The notes: a model not told the origin generated them from the letters alone. A DNA stretch of 64,000 nt from Terriglobia bacterium (GCA_963664115.2 CAXWPJ010000012.1:480001-544000); one strand, 5' to 3'; shown: positions 13,659 to 37,975, counted from the first letter of the stretch. Made by a program: numbers and translations.

Positions 13659-13740
13659 TGATTTGTCGCTACCTTGAACTCGAACATCATGGCACCAGCA
13701 CCCGTTCCCTCAGTTCTTCAAACCTGTTCAGGATGACATC
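13659..13740 (-). repeat. Right half of the palindromic site plus kinase 3' stub
   Basis: tgatttgtcgctaccttgaactcgaaca-tcatggcaccagcacccgttccctcagttcttcaaacc. Confidence 0.75.
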
Positions 13741-13909
13741 GATCTAAACGGCTTAGCAATCTTCACCGAGCGAACCCCTGGGAGGATGCCGGGAGTGCTG
13801 ACCGAAACCCGCTGCCGCTTACCCTCGAGAGTGAGCAGGCAGGAGCCGGCCATCCAGACCCGCTTCTCCCACGATGAAATCAGGATTCGAATAGACCTGT
13901 TGACGCAGC

Positions 13910-14668
13910 TCATCCACACCCGGGCGGCAGGATCTCGGCGTCGCCCAGATGGTGCAGGCGGTAGATGTCGCTCGCCGACGCCCACCTCAGACGGCAGATT
14001 TCCTCGGCGCGGTTCACGGCGCGGGCTTCGAGCTCGGGGGTGTCGAGGTATTTCGAAGCCAGTTCGATCTGGCGTTGGGAGTGTTCCTGGTCGGCCGCTT
14101 CGTGGGCAACGAAGAATTCGATGGCTGGCGAGTCCCTGTCAAAACCGTAATGGGTCGTCAAGGCGGGAATGGTGATCTCGGCGTTGAGTTGGGGCTGCTG
14201 CCCTTCCTGGGTGAACATGGCGGCAAGCGCCACGCCGATGGCTTCGAACTCGGCCATGTAACGGTAGAACAGGGTCCGCGCCCACCACGCCGGGGTCAGC
14301 TCCGTGGCGTCGATTTCCTCGCGCGTCATTCCGGCGGCGAGGCAGAAATTGTGCAGCATATCCATATGCTCATGGGGATCGTTGCCGATCTTGTCCATCA
14401 TGATAAGGCCCTCTTCTTCGGCCAGGTTTTCGATGCACATCTTTTTCACTTCCATCGGTCCGCGGGCATAAAGAAGGCCAAAGCTTTCAAGGGCCAGGAC
14501 GACAAACTTGGCGTGACAGGCCTGATGAATCGCAAGTGTCTTTATATCGAGCTTGCCTTCCGCGAGGGTGGTGAACAGCGGGTGCTGCTTGGTGTGCCAC
14601 TTGTCGCGGATGGCGATAATTCGATCGCCCACCGTTTTGCGGGCGTCGCCCGCCGTGTCCGGCCTCAT
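13910..14668 (-). CDS. Heme-oxygenase-like diiron enzyme (TenA/PqqC/CADD superfamily)
   Basis: ENLAEEEG...H, E, FF..H..AD.EH ligand pattern. Confidence 0.8.
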   Translation of the reverse strand: MRPDTAGDARKTVGDRIIAIRDKWHTKQHPLFTTLAEGKLDIKTLAIHQACHAKFVVLALESFGLLYARGPMEVKKMCIENLAEEEGLIMMDKIGNDPHEHMDMLHNFCLAAGMTREEIDATELTPAWWARTLFYRYMAEFEAIGVALAAMFTQEGQQPQLNAEITIPALTTHYGFDRDSPAIEFFVAHEAADQEHSQRQIELASKYLDTPELEARAVNRAEEICRLRWASASDIYRLHHLGDAEILPPGCG

Positions 14669-15001
14669 GATGACGATAACCTCCCCTACCCGATGGTCTG
14701 CCGATGCCGTCTACCGTGCTTATTCGATTTCACGCTCAAGGCACCCTATATACACATAATTCGGCGTCAACTATACCCTCTTCGCCGCCCCTGACCGTCC
14801 TGCTAAACCCCGCCAGCTGGCGCAGATCGTTCCGCCGGAATTCTTCGAGTCGCTCCTACGACGCCAGCAGCCCTGCCAGGGCCACTCATGAATTGATGCG
14901 GTACGGGAACCCGTCGACAAACGATATCGGTCTCACGGACATAAACGAGTCCTTTGAATTTGATGTATGCACCGCAGTTTTCATGTCATACGATTCCGTC
15001 G

Positions 15002-15144
15002 GAGTTTCGTGCCGGATTCCATATTCAAAGTGTGCAATTAAGGACGCTATGTAAATTTAGCTAATCGGTACAAGAGGTGAGGGTTATTGGCAAGAAAATC
15101 GTCGATGACAGACCTGCGACCATTTCTCAAGGTCCGACAAGATG
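15002..15144 (-). repeat. Kinase 5' stub (MESGTKL, ATG at 15022), leader, and left part of the palindromic site
   Basis: gagtttcgtgccggattccat...gggttattggcaagaaaa...ttctcaaggtccgacaagatg. Confidence 0.8.
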
Positions 15145-16392
15145 ATTCAGATCAACCGGTCGATGCAACACCTGCGTTTAATGTCTCTGCCGGATTAGCG
15201 AAGTCCAGCGTCTCACGAGGTCGCCCGTTGAGCTTCCTTGCGATCATATCCAAATGCTCCTGTGAGTGAACCGACAAGTCCGTACCTTTAGGGAATACTG
15301 TCGGAGCAAACCGTTCGTGTTTTCGTTCGAACCCCGTTGCCAGGGACTCCTCGGATCGCAAAAGTAAACGGCAATGTCGGTGGCCAGAGTGAACCGTTTG
15401 TGATTGGCCATTTCCAATCCGCGATCCCAGGTCAGTGTTTTATAGAGTTCGGTCGGGAGTTTGTCTGCGTGTTCGATCAGCGCGTTGATGACGGTTTCGG
15501 TTTCCTTATTCGGAACCTTCACCCGCATCACGTACCGGGAGAAACGTTCGACCAATGTCGCAATGTAGGTGTTGTTCGAACCCGCTATGAGATCCCCTTC
15601 CCAGTGTCCGGGGACCGCGCGATCTTCAACCGAAGCCGGGCGCTCACGGATCGATATCAGATCCGGGATCTGCCCGCCACCCCGGCCTTTGCGACTGGCA
15701 TGCCGGGACCGGCGAATCGTGCGTTTGGTCCGTAGATGCTGTGTCAGTTCTTTCTTCAGAGCCCCGCGGGCCTGGATGAAAAGGCTGCGATAGATCGTTT
15801 CGTGTGACACGTAAAGTGACTCGTCGTCTGGATATTCGCGTTTCAGCCAACCCGCAATCTGTCGCGGTGCCCAATCCTCCCGGAGCTTCTCTTCGACGAT
15901 CCCGCGTAAGCTGGGATAGCGGATCAGTCGACATCTCTTCGGGCGGTGAGCCCGTTCCCATGCGCGTTCATCCGCCTCCAACGCTCGATAGTTATCATAG
16001 CCCCCATTGCGACCGATCTCCCGACTGACTGTGGAGGGTGCACGCGACAGCGAGGCGGCAATTGAACGGATCGATCCCTTGGCGGCAATGCCTCGGGAAA
16101 TCTCTTCACGCTCGGCGAGGGTCAGCGCCCGCTTAGAGCGGCATCGTGTCCTGGGACAGATTCCACCATACGGTGCGATCTGACCATAAACCGAAGAGCC
16201 CTCCTTTCCGAACACACGTCCGATCGCTTTTAGACTCTCTCCCCGCTGCCAGCGAATCCACACCTCGTCTATATCGGCGAGTGTGTAGCCTCGCCGCACC
16301 CGGTCTTTACTCTGTTTCTTCCGTCGTTTCTTACGCATACACTCCACCTCCTCCTTTTAGGTACAGTGTTGCATCGATCTGTTGAGACCACC
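15145..16392 (-). mobile_element. IS30-family element inserted in the centre of the palindromic site
   Basis: Imperfect IRs attcagatcaaccggtcgatgcaacac / ggtggtctcaacagatcgatgcaacac; 2-bp TG duplication. Confidence 0.9.
15152..16347 (-). pseudogene. IS30 transposase, frameshifted near 15295
   Basis: [32 protein letters not shown]-terminal LNGRPR..L in another frame. Confidence 0.9.
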
Positions 16393-16500
16393 TGATTTGT
16401 CGGAACTTGAACTCGAAAATCACGGGACCGGCACCCGTTCCTTCAGTTCTTCAATCAAATTCAGGACGATGTTGATTTGGGGTGTCGTTGGATCAGCAAA
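16393..16500 (-). repeat. Right part of the palindromic site plus kinase 3' stub
   Basis: tgatttgtcggaacttgaactcgaaaa; the stub encodes PQINIVLNLIEELKERVPVP*. Confidence 0.85.
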
Positions 16501-16553
16501 TATGCAAGCCGTGTTAGGATGCATTGAACGAAAACAAAGTTTCGGAGAAGACG

Positions 16554-36535: not shown

Positions 36536-36556
36536 ATCATGTTCACGGTTGAAGGC

Positions 36557-37168
36557 TCAGAGCCCTTTCGTCATTCGATAGAACTTCAATCCCGGTATAG
36601 CCAATCTCTTCGGCCACTGCGACTCGACGTTCATCCCGCGGCGCTCGTAGAATCGGCAAGCTCCCGCATTCCTAGCTGAAACGTCGAGGGATAGTCGAGT
36701 CGATCCGCTCGCACGAGCCCGATCTTCAACGAAGTCCATCAAGACGGAGCCGACGCCATCGCCGCGAAGTTCCTTATCAACAGCGATGGCTTGGAGGTAG
36801 AAATCGCCATCGGCGATTGAATCGACAATCCGCATGATTGGAGCAAACAGTATCTCTACGGTCCTCATTTGTAGATTGAATCTTCCGGCAGCCCGCTTCA
36901 GGGGTTGGCGCGAAGAACGGCGATGCTGCTCCGCGGTGTACACGCAGACTGTTCCCACGATGACGTCGTCACGTTCTGCGAAAGTCACATTTTGGTAGGA
37001 GAGGTCGTGGTCGGGCTGGGCGAACGCCGTGGCGACTATTTGCTCGGCGCGGCGACCGAGCCAAAAACGAAAGAATCCCTCGGCTGCTTGGTCAAGGTAG
37101 CGAGCAAATGCCAGACCTTCATCGAACGTGGGTTTGGCGGCCCTTAAGACTATCGAATGCCGATCCAT
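36557..37168 (-). CDS. GNAT N-acetyltransferase
   Basis: IAVDKELRGDGVGSVLM; N.GA.RFYERRG. Confidence 0.9.
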   Translation of the reverse strand: MDRHSIVLRAAKPTFDEGLAFARYLDQAAEGFFRFWLGRRAEQIVATAFAQPDHDLSYQNVTFAERDDVIVGTVCVYTAEQHRRSSRQPLKRAAGRFNLQMRTVEILFAPIMRIVDSIADGDFYLQAIAVDKELRGDGVGSVLMDFVEDRARASGSTRLSLDVSARNAGACRFYERRGMNVESQWPKRLAIPGLKFYRMTKGL

Positions 37169-37212
37169 ATCGTCCTTCTACGCCGAACATGGTAGTAGGC
37201 CGTGCATCCAAT

Positions 37213-37298
37213 TCTCAACGTCCGAGAAGATGATTTATCAGGACTTGACCTCGAAAATCAGGGAACAGGCCCTCGTTCTTTCGGTTCCTCGAACCAGT
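37213..37298 (-). repeat. Palindromic site (core 37218-37245) plus kinase 3' stub
   Basis: acgtccgagaagatgatttatcaggacttgacctcgaaaatcagggaacagg. Confidence 0.9.
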
Positions 37299-37300
37299 GT

Positions 37301-37611
37301 TTATTTAGGGCGCGTTCTGAATCGAGAGGCGGCTTGGTTCAGGGAGTCGTGTAGTTCTTCCCAAGCTTTCTGCAGGCCTGGTTTCAGATCGTCCCAAGCT
37401 TCAGCAGTCGTTTCTTTCAATTCGCGCAACTTGTACTGCGCGGCTTCCAGTTTCCTGCGAAGTTTACTGATCTGCGCTTTAACTTCGGACGTAATGCTTC
37501 CGCTTCTGTCCCGGCAGCGGTTTCCAGTTTCCTGCGAAGTTTACTGATCTGCGCTCGCAACTCGTTGAGTCGATCTTCCACGTTCGGCCCGTCAGATCGT
37601 TGGTCAGTCAT
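37301..37611 (-). pseudogene. Small coiled-coil protein frameshifted by a ~33-bp internal duplication
   Basis: ...KLRELKETTAEAWDDLKPGLQKAWEEL..; ttccagtttcctgcgaagtttactgatctgcgct occurs twice. Confidence 0.6.
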
Positions 37612-37767
37612 CTAACCTAAGCATAATATGGAATGTCCTTGCTGTTTCCGTATCCCGAGTCAAAGACGGTACGGCAACGACTATACAACCCAGTGAAATT
37701 ACTACGGACCTACTCAGAGCCATTGGAAAGAATCATCAGGGGTTGAACGGGCTCAGTTAGTGGCAAC

Positions 37768-37975
37768 CTACGGCACCGGCACCCGCTCTTTCAGTTCTTC
37801 AAACCAGTTCAGGACGATGTTGCTTCGGTCTGGCTCTGCCTCGCTGCCTTTGAGCGCGGCATGCTGAACCATCACGAATCGTTGACCGTCGGCTGTCAAA
37901 TCGTAGACGGGAAACGGCGCCATATAGACTTCATTGCGGCCTGACTCGTCGGAGACATACGCCACCCAGTTGCCA
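37768..37975 (-). pseudogene. Kinase-TolB/PD40 C-terminal fragment with internal deletion
   Basis: AYVSDESGRNEVY..PFP / YDLTADGQRFVMV...NIVLNWFEELKERVPVP*. Confidence 0.85.

Follow-up and report, generated by a model that had tools for sequence, protein, structure and literature searches.

Two shuffled libraries of small gene modules are established in bacteria: integrons and the dif modules of Acinetobacter. Cre/lox-type systems and the XerH, XerS and XerA systems resolve dimers at one site per replicon. The locus described here, within a 64-kb stretch of DNA analysed at full length (the window), shares features with each of these systems. Like integron arrays (PMC8352920), it has long direct arrays of small unrelated genes with one site per cassette. 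Like Acinetobacter dif modules (PMC13141974, PMC12907356), it has modules between sites with an 11-6-11 core. Further parallels with dif modules are two kinds of module between inversely oriented sites, partners set by spacer identity, fused modules between direct sites, and insertion sequences that hunt the sites (PMC10132070). The system works like the Acinetobacter dif modules but is no member of that group, and we did not find it described in the literature searched.

The site and its spacer classes

An earlier note on this DNA had proposed a 38-bp dif/lox-like palindrome, repeated directly at ten positions. All ten cores are there and all are direct; the palindrome also stands, but the conserved unit is 40 bp, that is, two 17-bp arms (6+11 and 11+6) around a 6-bp spacer. 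As in pdif and dif sites, 11-bp arms surround a 6-bp spacer, here with 6 further conserved bp on each side. We built a profile from the nine intact window copies and, as the note had suggested, scanned the genome and its relatives. The profile gives 189 matches in the source genome (G000), about 10 of them at contig ends that are duplicated or on haplotype-like contigs, with IS-split halves also among the matches, and 0 in a mononucleotide-shuffled control; two further shuffles also gave 0. The 24 site clusters span 9% of the genome, which is likely that of a member of the Terriglobia (Acidobacteriota). A chromosomal dif is a single copy at the terminus, unlike this site; the canonical dif of the host is a separate locus, C2:108118, which lies at a skew change and is conserved in 17 of 41 relatives. 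Site arrays are present in all four congeners of G000. Counts in relatives are 124 (G002), 68 (G003), 9 (G004), 3 (G441) and 6 (G442), and conservation is similar, with 0.71 (G002) and 0.67 (G003) mismatches against 0.67 (G000).

Sites are classed by spacer: GATGAT in class 1, TGTCGT in class 2 and GCCGAC in class 3. The site spacer is uniform inside each genome and varies among species, being CCGGAT in G004 and GAGGAT in G441 and G442. Adjacent class-1 pairs are direct in 93/99 cases in G000, 60/62 in G002 and 27/27 in G003; conversely, neighbouring class-1/class-2 pairs are inverted in 37/38, 25/25 and 14/14 cases, respectively. The alternation of successive sites seen in pdif modules is absent within class 1 and occurs only between classes. 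Since same-class neighbours are direct, single modules would be excisable, which sets this system apart from the Acinetobacter dif modules. It also differs from them in its 17-bp near-symmetric arms without the XerD signature, in having two or three spacers for some 190 sites (about nine times the 22 sites reported for one Acinetobacter chromosome), and in its kinase scaffold and separate recombinase gene inside the array.

Modules in the window

All class-1 sites of the window lie on the plus strand. Upstream of them are a degenerate site (6874..6913, plus strand), 113 bp before an element with a tyrosine recombinase and an IS91-type transposase (7026-9088), and a right half-site followed by a kinase 3'-end stub (13659..13739, plus). 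A TenA/haem-oxygenase-like redox enzyme (PF14518; 13910..14668, minus) precedes the class-1 site at 15124..16413. The core of this site at 15130 is, as had been noted, split by an IS30-type element (15145-16392), which lies at the spacer centre with the central TG duplicated. At 16524..22350 lie a DUF6152 pair, an IS1380-type element, an amidohydrolase, a dienelactone hydrolase and kinase stubs; the IS1380-type element has about 80 copies in the genome. The class-1 site at 22552..22591 (spacer GATGAT) is followed by a metallo-beta-lactamase-fold protein (22854..23927, minus), of which a 91% copy lies inside a G002 array, and by the site 24296..24335. The right flank of the latter, 520 bp with a kinase C-terminal piece, is common to a G002 site, and the left flanks are unlike. 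A DUF5916/CBM9 protein (plus) and an internal kinase fragment (minus) occupy 24914..27768, before a class-1 site with one change in the spacer and one in an arm (27846..27885).

At 29720..29759 (minus) an inverted class-2 site, spacer TGTCGT, stands back to back with the class-1 site 29868..29907. Outward from it run a sigma70-like promoter match (29705-29676) and a kinase 5' stub of 77 codons from 29630 (together 29400..29705, minus). The array of direct sites proposed earlier is right for class 1 but overlooked this inverted site; likewise the listed sites are sound, but the degenerate site at 6874 and a class-3 site at 62965 were missed. A DUF6152 protein (30170..30583, minus) leads to the site 30685..30724, from which 1,478 bp onward match a G002 site at 97%, the identity beginning at site position 1. 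A dienelactone hydrolase, an unknown 258-aa ORF and a DUF6152 protein (31027..33695, plus) are followed by a consensus copy of the site (34040..34079), then by a glyoxalase-family gene (34141..34509, minus), alone in a 542-bp cassette, and the site 34582..34621. An HbpS-like haem-binding protein (plus) and a kinase 5' stub of 143 codons (minus) fill 35307..36395, before the site 36497..36536, a GNAT acetyltransferase (36557..37168, minus) and the site 37212..37251. The GNAT cassette, 715 bp from site to site, is found again at C2:319236-319910 and in G001 (L166), with different neighbours. A kinase 3'-end stub without an intact site lies at 37772..37975 (minus). Finally, at 62923..62992 (plus), a class-1 right half after an IS30-type end is followed by the class-3 site GCCGAC (62965-62992); both half-sites recognised earlier, at 13659 and 62925, are right halves. 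No Rfam match and no tRNA was found in the window.

Kinase ends at the sites

The segments measure 0.5-7.4 kb, where 0.5-6 kb had been given. Their cargo is diverse, as claimed, but most segments also carry, next to a site, the 3' end and/or the 5' start of one Ser/Thr-kinase gene family. A kinase 3' end follows 73 of 158 class-1 sites, a promoter and kinase start follow 20 of 27 class-2 sites, and G007, G441 and G442 have tandem kinases of full length together with sites. Together with the uncoupling of inner arm positions from their flanks (see below), these observations would suit a palindrome that is an operator or terminator of the kinase family, copied passively, whose flanks are swapped through homologous recombination or conversion between repeats. 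We consider this explanation improbable. No kinase end was detected at 85 of the 158 class-1 sites, and the kinases are nearly all stubs (3 are full-length, one of them an assembly-supported single copy), yet the sites are conserved. Moreover, the asymmetric spacer is conserved and sets orientation, linkage is broken at the spacer, no terminator was called on the sites, and same-class sites occur on a plasmid stretch without an annotated kinase.

Exchange of flanks at the site

Flanks are exchanged at the site. All 31 cross-species site pairs with at least 250 bp of common flank have just one flank in common, although 4 of the 31 are class-2 pairs with the kinase start in common, and pairs and genomes are not independent. 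None of the 107 low-copy segments common between species crosses a site, and 25 of their 208 ends lie in a site in both genomes, the site fraction being 1.4%. For low-copy duplicates within G000, 13 of 186 ends lie in a site in both copies, where sites make up 0.19% of the genome. Whole cassettes have been copied from site to site within G000 (1,289 bp at 99.3% and 389 bp at 95.5%); no recent whole-cassette duplicates were seen inside the G002 and G003 arrays examined.

Linkage, too, breaks at the spacer. Each arm goes with its own flank (1.68 versus 2.76 and 1.75 versus 3.65 mismatches). Mutual information is high within arms (z up to 52; 5.2 for positions 8 and 15, 8.3 for 26 and 33) and at most 2.8 across the spacer; that is, arm variants show no linkage across the spacer, and both arms draw on the same variant alphabet. 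The earlier note had made much depend on where module breakpoints between related genomes fall: they fall in the site, and when module order and content are compared, the borders are the places where modules change neighbours between related species. Judged by sequence comparison, then, exchange takes place at sites with matching spacers, as in pdif modules, and the modules bordered by the site stand beside different neighbours from one related genome to another. The core of the earlier proposal, an integron-analogous cassette system at a tyrosine-recombinase-type, non-attC site, is supported by the breakpoints and the linkage break, and we regard a site-specific cassette system as very probable. 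The proposal had not extended to the inverted second class, the spread of sites over the genome, the kinase stubs or a candidate recombinase. Two observations are not explained by single clean crossovers: positions 15 and 26 of the inner arms vary independently of the adjoining flank, and one cassette copied at 99.3% has two differences in each of its cassette-facing arms. Conversion between sites has to be invoked for them.

Public contigs on the window (4 runs, 4 studies) cover the modules at about 99% and end at sites; the listed contig joints have short sides, possibly from other arrays. No circles were seen in these contigs. One public contig continues for 297 unlike letters past site 27846, at depth 3.

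Single-strand readings of the palindrome

The site had also been thought to form a hairpin as single-stranded DNA. A bulged hairpin is good only in consensus copies (z -4.4); many others fold weakly, those at 24296 and 37212 being on a par with their shuffles (z -0.4 to -1.2), and compensatory covariation between the arms is absent (15x26, z 0.3), so this idea finds no support. The hairpin of the consensus copies is nonetheless one point in favour of two other readings: a short attC-like single-strand hairpin on which the integron integrase of this genome acts, or a hairpin of REP type that a Y1 (RAYT-type) transposase has spread. Others are that G000 has an IntI above the NCBIfam cut-off and two Y1 transposases, that inverted back-to-back pairs look like REP doublets, and that IS110-family elements target the site. 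Such readings are already largely refuted, and we give them very little chance. Variants in the two arms show neither linkage across the spacer nor covariation, which speaks against an attC-like hairpin; neighbours split the arms, which do not move together; and the 40 bp hold a single 17-bp inverted pair instead of the R''-L''-loop-L'-R' boxes of attC. IntI lies 195 kb from the nearest site, with no repeat array seen in 30 kb near it, and was not found in G003. One Y1 gene of G000 is 260 bp from a lone site rather than flanked by the repeat, as a REP/RAYT system would have it, and the Y1 genes of G002, G003 and G004 have no site within 1.5 kb.

Compared with integrons, the site lacks the R/L two-box layout and covariation. 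The crossover is at the site centre, arrays stand at 24 places, and many cassettes are multi-gene, in either orientation. The likenesses include a promoter-like sequence adjoining the second site class and, in G000, G007 and G017, a recombinase gene divergent to the first cassette.

Candidate recombinases

A gene at C5:52189-53139, which we call P0001, sits between two inverted class-2 sites with identical spacers. Its product is a simple tyrosine recombinase with a core-binding and a catalytic domain (R-K-H-R-H/W-Y, intact here as R-K-H-R-H-Y; model pLDDT 76.6), outside the IntI family (61 bits, cut-off 265); its best solved relative is archaeal XerA (E 2e-19). As in Cre/lox and XerH/XerS/XerA systems (the simple-YR group; PMC8138268), one simple two-domain recombinase is predicted to act on a near-symmetric site, and P0001 has plasmid-borne relatives. 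In contrast to those systems, the site here is multi-copy, has two spacer classes and borders cargo. P0001 homologues stand divergent to kinase modules in G007 and also, in broken form, in G017. Given a site-specific cassette system, we think it quite likely that the P0001 family is the enzyme that works it.

Several comparisons bear on this assignment. Matches to a class-3 model derived solely from G000 are concentrated around P0001 homologues in other Acidobacteriota (8 matches at 7 places within 400 bp versus 9 farther away, p 3e-5). When symmetric sites were sought class-wide with the spacer left free, they ended in GAY or CGT in 41 of the 48 listings, against about 9% by chance. On pACIX905, a plasmid of the cultured strain Granulicella tundricola MP5ACTX9, 8 intergenic sites at a threshold lowered post hoc lie in 41 kb around a 59% P0001 homologue (WP_013573308.1), with 0-2 in shuffles, and the site stretch has no annotated kinase; the site counts at two further plasmids and two viral loci were 0, 1, 0 and 0. 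Beside 63 homologue loci the class-1/2 profile had no matches and simple palindrome scans gave little signal or none; with a symmetric model of the arms, 4 matches were near and 31 far from homologues. A P0001 homologue occurs in 17 of 48 site genomes (p 0.004; 57 homologue-positive genomes, G503 included) and in 4 of 12 reversed-pattern control genomes, so that co-occurrence at the genome level is not discriminating. In public data the P0001 cassette is a site-to-site contig without differences in 4 of 4 runs. Its depth is about 5 against about 17 alongside in two runs and equal in two others; since depth is no copy number, this hints only weakly at an accessory cassette. The 3 serine recombinases of G000 all lie more than 5 kb from any listed site.

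P0001 was not found in G002, G003, G004, G441 or G442 (92-97% complete). Its absence from two site-rich congeners leaves room for the host XerC and XerD, acting on the same cassettes as true dif modules with a non-canonical XerD arm, or for XerC on both arms; we judge this unlikely. A degenerate XerD arm can be used by Xer in integrative elements such as TLC phage, according to PMC9226527, and the present sites might be used likewise, perhaps with an activator; those elements integrate at dif with an activator of their own, whereas the arrays here lie away from dif and their spacers differ. XerC and XerD are the only close orthologues (79-92% identity) among the tyrosine recombinases compared in G000, G002 and G003, a comparison that took in 11 of 12 from G003 and most from G002. 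The left arm resembles the XerC arm of dif (mean 7.1/11 for the host, 10/11 for G038), and the two-class inverted grammar recalls the C and D modules of PMC13141974. The right arm, however, matches the host XerD arm (TTATG...) at only 5.1/11 on average, and has G at the fifth position, reported in PMC9226527 as the most important base for XerD, in 2 of 150 sites, which bears out the earlier remark that the XerD consensus is lacking. Both arms share one variant alphabet; some 190 Xer sites round the chromosome would need an FtsK-independent activator, of which we identified none; and the arrays are restricted to two genera, whereas XerCD and dif occur throughout the family.

An unrelated 327-aa Cre-like recombinase common to G002 and G003 is likewise flanked by similar arms, its sites agreeing with the inner arm at 9/11, and arms score like dif, so the enzyme cannot be named from the likeness of arms alone. 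Each lineage might instead use a different recombinase, such as this one or the IS91-linked recombinases, as G000 has 8 recombinase-IS91 elements, 5 of which begin no more than 310 bp from a site. This seems to us most improbable: the Cre-like gene is distant from the arrays, differs in its spacers and outer arms and is absent from G000, and the IS91-linked recombinase was not found in G003, its position being explained by target preference.

Proposed mechanism and distribution

On balance, this is likely the site at which a tyrosine-recombinase cassette system acting on double-stranded DNA crosses over, and the Acidobacteriota-specific P0001 family, bound to both arms, is probably its enzyme; the enzyme, circles and expression are what we infer. 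A site would partner only with sites of identical 6-bp spacer, so that direct class-1 repeats would allow one module to be excised or integrated as a circle with one hybrid site. Class-2 sites would form an independent channel, inverted to class 1, ahead of the promoter-like sequence and kinase start. The ancestral module was likely a class-2 site, a promoter, a Ser/Thr kinase/beta-propeller gene and an inverted class-1 site; it would have been amplified and its middle then swapped for unrelated genes. Kinase truncation points are variable, so replacement of the middle would not be site-specific. Frequent decay of class-2 sites would leave integron-like direct arrays. The P0001 gene, as a module between two class-2 sites, may be accessory or supplied in trans.

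Tentatively, we suggest that integrons and dif modules possibly have a third counterpart here, a general gene-cassette platform with a dedicated Acidobacteriota-wide homomeric recombinase, two orthogonal spacer channels and a recombinase that is itself a mobile cassette. In one genus it would have grown to superintegron scale, with ~190 sites over 9% of the chromosome, as a kinase gene was emptied out to serve as a scaffold for capture and cassettes passed from species to species. If so, an abundant, little-studied phylum would hold a library of superintegron-like size that uses neither integron sites nor standard dif, escapes attC and pdif finders, and has a grammar of two spacer classes that is simple to read. 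Kinase 'graveyards' in Acidobacteriota would be explained as cassette scaffolds, a way would open to mine cassette genes, and a new pair of recombinase and site, with orthogonal spacers of natural origin, would become available. The candidate enzyme family has thousands of relatives, and the small version on the plasmid of a cultured strain makes the system testable.

In a phylum sample, 3 of 400 other genomes have a single 3-mismatch match each, which we treated as chance. The class-1 pattern has 0 matches in viral contigs; in metagenome contigs it occurs at 10 short loci of the same architecture.

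The repeated site and its arrays

All ten site cores that the earlier note had reported in the window, in direct orientation, are present at those positions. The repeat is indeed palindromic, but its conserved unit is 40 bp (consensus TTCTCA-ACGTCCGAGAA / 6-bp spacer / TTMTCAGGACT-TGASMW) rather than 38 bp. When a profile built from nine window copies, with one iteration, was run over the whole genome (G000), a scan that the note had proposed, it returned 189 matches, against none in a shuffled control; about 10 of the 189 come from contig ends that are duplicated or from haplotype-like contigs (C6/C11). 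By spacer, 158 sites belong to class 1 (GATGAT) and 27 to class 2 (KGTCGT), with 4 ambiguous; a rarer class 3 (GCCGAC) occurs in the same clusters as the other sites. The 24 clusters hold 159 sites and span 443 kb, or 9% of the assembly. A half-site scan listed 49 left halves and 36 right halves; insertions split many of them. Several odd sites (e.g. C12:552659, C2:757864 and C2:253771) have 3- or 7-bp spacers or left-arm/left-arm fusions, which we read as scars left by slippage, by excision of IS30 or by aberrant recombination.

Exchange of modules at the site

The arrays are real and genome-scale, and comparison between genomes provides direct evidence that modules, the segments between sites, are exchanged at the site. 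In the module comparison that the earlier note suggested, breakpoints between genomes fall at the site. Of 107 low-copy cross-species matches, retained from 279, not one extends across a site; 25 of their 208 ends lie within a site in both genomes (site fraction 1.4%). All 31 cross-species site pairs whose common flank reaches 250 bp or more are alike on one flank only; since site pairs are not independent of each other, p-values overstate. Within G000, where 101 low-copy matches were retained from 5,467, 13 of 186 ends lie within a site in both copies. Two cassettes, of 1,289 and 389 bp, have been duplicated site-to-site into other arrays, and the GNAT cassette of the window is found whole both in another array and in the genome G001. 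Many modules common to different species are 96–98.5% identical, which suggests that they may have been transferred between species.

The arms of site pairs are more alike on the side of the common flank and, over 256 class-1 sites, linkage between variable positions holds inside each arm and is absent across the spacer. The same 256 sites speak against the single-strand hairpin envisaged in the earlier note: its would-be paired positions show no covariation. Two observations count against a simple exchange picture. Positions 15 and 26 show no linkage with the flank on their own side, and in one 99.3% cassette the two cassette-facing arms both carry differences; here we assume conversion between sites. 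Contigs C6 (1–46 kb) and C11 (1–83 kb) are near-identical except for a 45-kb versus an 11-kb block, one breakpoint of which coincides exactly with a site; they are either two haplotypes or a duplication.

Orientation, kinase genes and cargo

Neighbouring class-1 sites are direct in 93 of 99 cases in G000, 60 of 62 in the congener G002 and 27 of 27 in the congener G003, and class-1/class-2 neighbours are inverted in 37 of 38, 25 of 25 and 14 of 14, the G002 and G003 counts covering fetched array regions only (110 and 53 sites, respectively). Direct modules have a median length of 2.1 kb. A Ser/Thr kinase carrying a beta-propeller lies on the right-arm side of the sites: the kinase 3' end follows 73 of 158 class-1 sites, and promoter-like sequence with the kinase start follows 20 of 27 class-2 sites. 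Only three kinases were found full-length, compared with dozens of stubs truncated at many different codons; full tandem kinases with sites still occur in the genomes G007, G441 and G442.

The cargo of 20 fetched array regions comprises 99 families from 175 ORFs, with representatives that include hydrolases, small redox and detoxification proteins, transporters, secreted DUF6152 proteins, some housekeeping-type genes and many transposases. The largest family, 19 of the 175 ORFs, clusters with a DUF6152-bearing representative. In the window, genes for small secreted proteins of DUF6152 type, accompanied by larger partners, repeat at 17081, 28914, 30170 and 33201.

Distribution among relatives

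With the spacer free and 3 mismatches allowed, the site is present in 12 of 35 family genomes, and the reversed control pattern in none. There are 169 copies in G000, 124, 68, 20 and 9 in its four congeners, 1–6 in four genomes from a second genus, and single matches in three more; a phylum sample of 400 genomes yielded 3 single matches. The spacer is mostly CCGGAT in the congener G004 and GAGGAT in G441 and G442, with arms and kinase context as in G000.

Candidate recombinases

G000 contains 27 tyrosine-recombinase matches, including XerC, XerD and one IntI above the NCBIfam cut-off (C9:714590–715759), around which the 30 kb examined held no repeat array. Provided that the system is site-specific, we consider the family of P0001 (C5:52189–53139) the probable enzyme. 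This 316-aa protein is modelled with two domains, falls below the cut-off for every NCBIfam family, and has catalytic residues invariant across 54 sequences. Its gene is flanked by two inverted class-2 sites, each reading outward into a kinase start, and homologues are divergent from kinases in G007 and the genome G017. All 55 named loci of this recombinase are in Acidobacteriota, mostly Terriglobia, which makes G000 itself a probable member of that class; homologues occur in 57 of 301 genomes of the class and on 8 plasmids, and the plasmid pACIX905 has eight intergenic sites surrounding a 59% homologue. A symmetric site pattern with free spacer is found in 48 of the 301 genomes, versus 12 for the control, and in 41 of 48 listings (some listed twice) its spacers terminate in GAY or CGT, as the class-1 and class-2 spacers of G000 do. 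Several findings count against P0001: five genomes that carry sites yielded no copy of it, and two of these are site-rich, their sites being just as conserved; genome-level co-occurrence with sites is no better than control; and an unrelated Cre-like recombinase is flanked by similar arms.

On the same proviso, host XerC/D could work the sites: XerC and XerD are the only orthologues in common among the recombinases compared, and the left arm is XerC-like. An XerD signature is, however, absent from the right arm, as the earlier note had observed, and we regard this assignment as unlikely. G000 has a canonical dif at a skew change, conserved in 17 of 41 relatives. A second, degenerate copy lies 3.4 kb off (C2:108118–111541), likely marking a small element integrated at dif; a lone weak dif-like 28-mer within a module (window 34887–34914) may be a chance match. 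The Cre-like recombinase (L182:903–1886 in G002; L306 in G003) has its own 16-6-16 palindromic sites on both sides, and is 99% alike in the two species and frameshifted in G003.

Relation to known systems

Site-specific cassette shuffling is, as a general kind, already known. The array system works like dif modules (PMC13141974, PMC12907356), and its layout resembles an integron array (PMC8352920), as the earlier note proposed in calling it an integron-analogous, non-attC system, yet it lacks defining features of both. The open-access literature searched held no description in Acidobacteriota. The enzyme, circles and expression are inferred, and a separate cassette platform with its own recombinase is a tentative reading.

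Elements inserted in or near sites

Several elements target the site. IS30-type ends lie inside sites in 7 of 7 and 6 of 6 copies, as do two IS110-family elements (L218:3887–5029, 7 of 8 copies; L211:11107–12354, 7 of 7), which may be targeted to a recombination site by bridge RNA. Three ORF-less elements of about 650 nt (C12:16350–17040, 19480–20175 and 563810–564495) share one insertion point, between site positions 13 and 14 of the bottom strand, and have what we take to be group II intron-like ends and a domain V; the labels IS30, IS1380, group II intron and Cre-like come from Pfam domains or motifs. Such targeting fits a protein-bound or structured site and does not name the enzyme. IS elements that hunt pdif sites (PMC10132070) offer a parallel.

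Other elements lie nearby. One with a tyrosine recombinase and an IS91-type transposase (window 7026–9088) is present in six identical copies; both this element and two relatives often begin at most 310 bp from a site, and two tandem 148-bp copies, 99% identical, follow the window element (9126–9421). An IS1380-type element (window 18140–19997) has about 80 near-identical genomic copies. At C10:489868–493158, a tRNA-end remnant, two Y1 transposase-like ORFs and an AbiE-like gene pair adjoin a single site.
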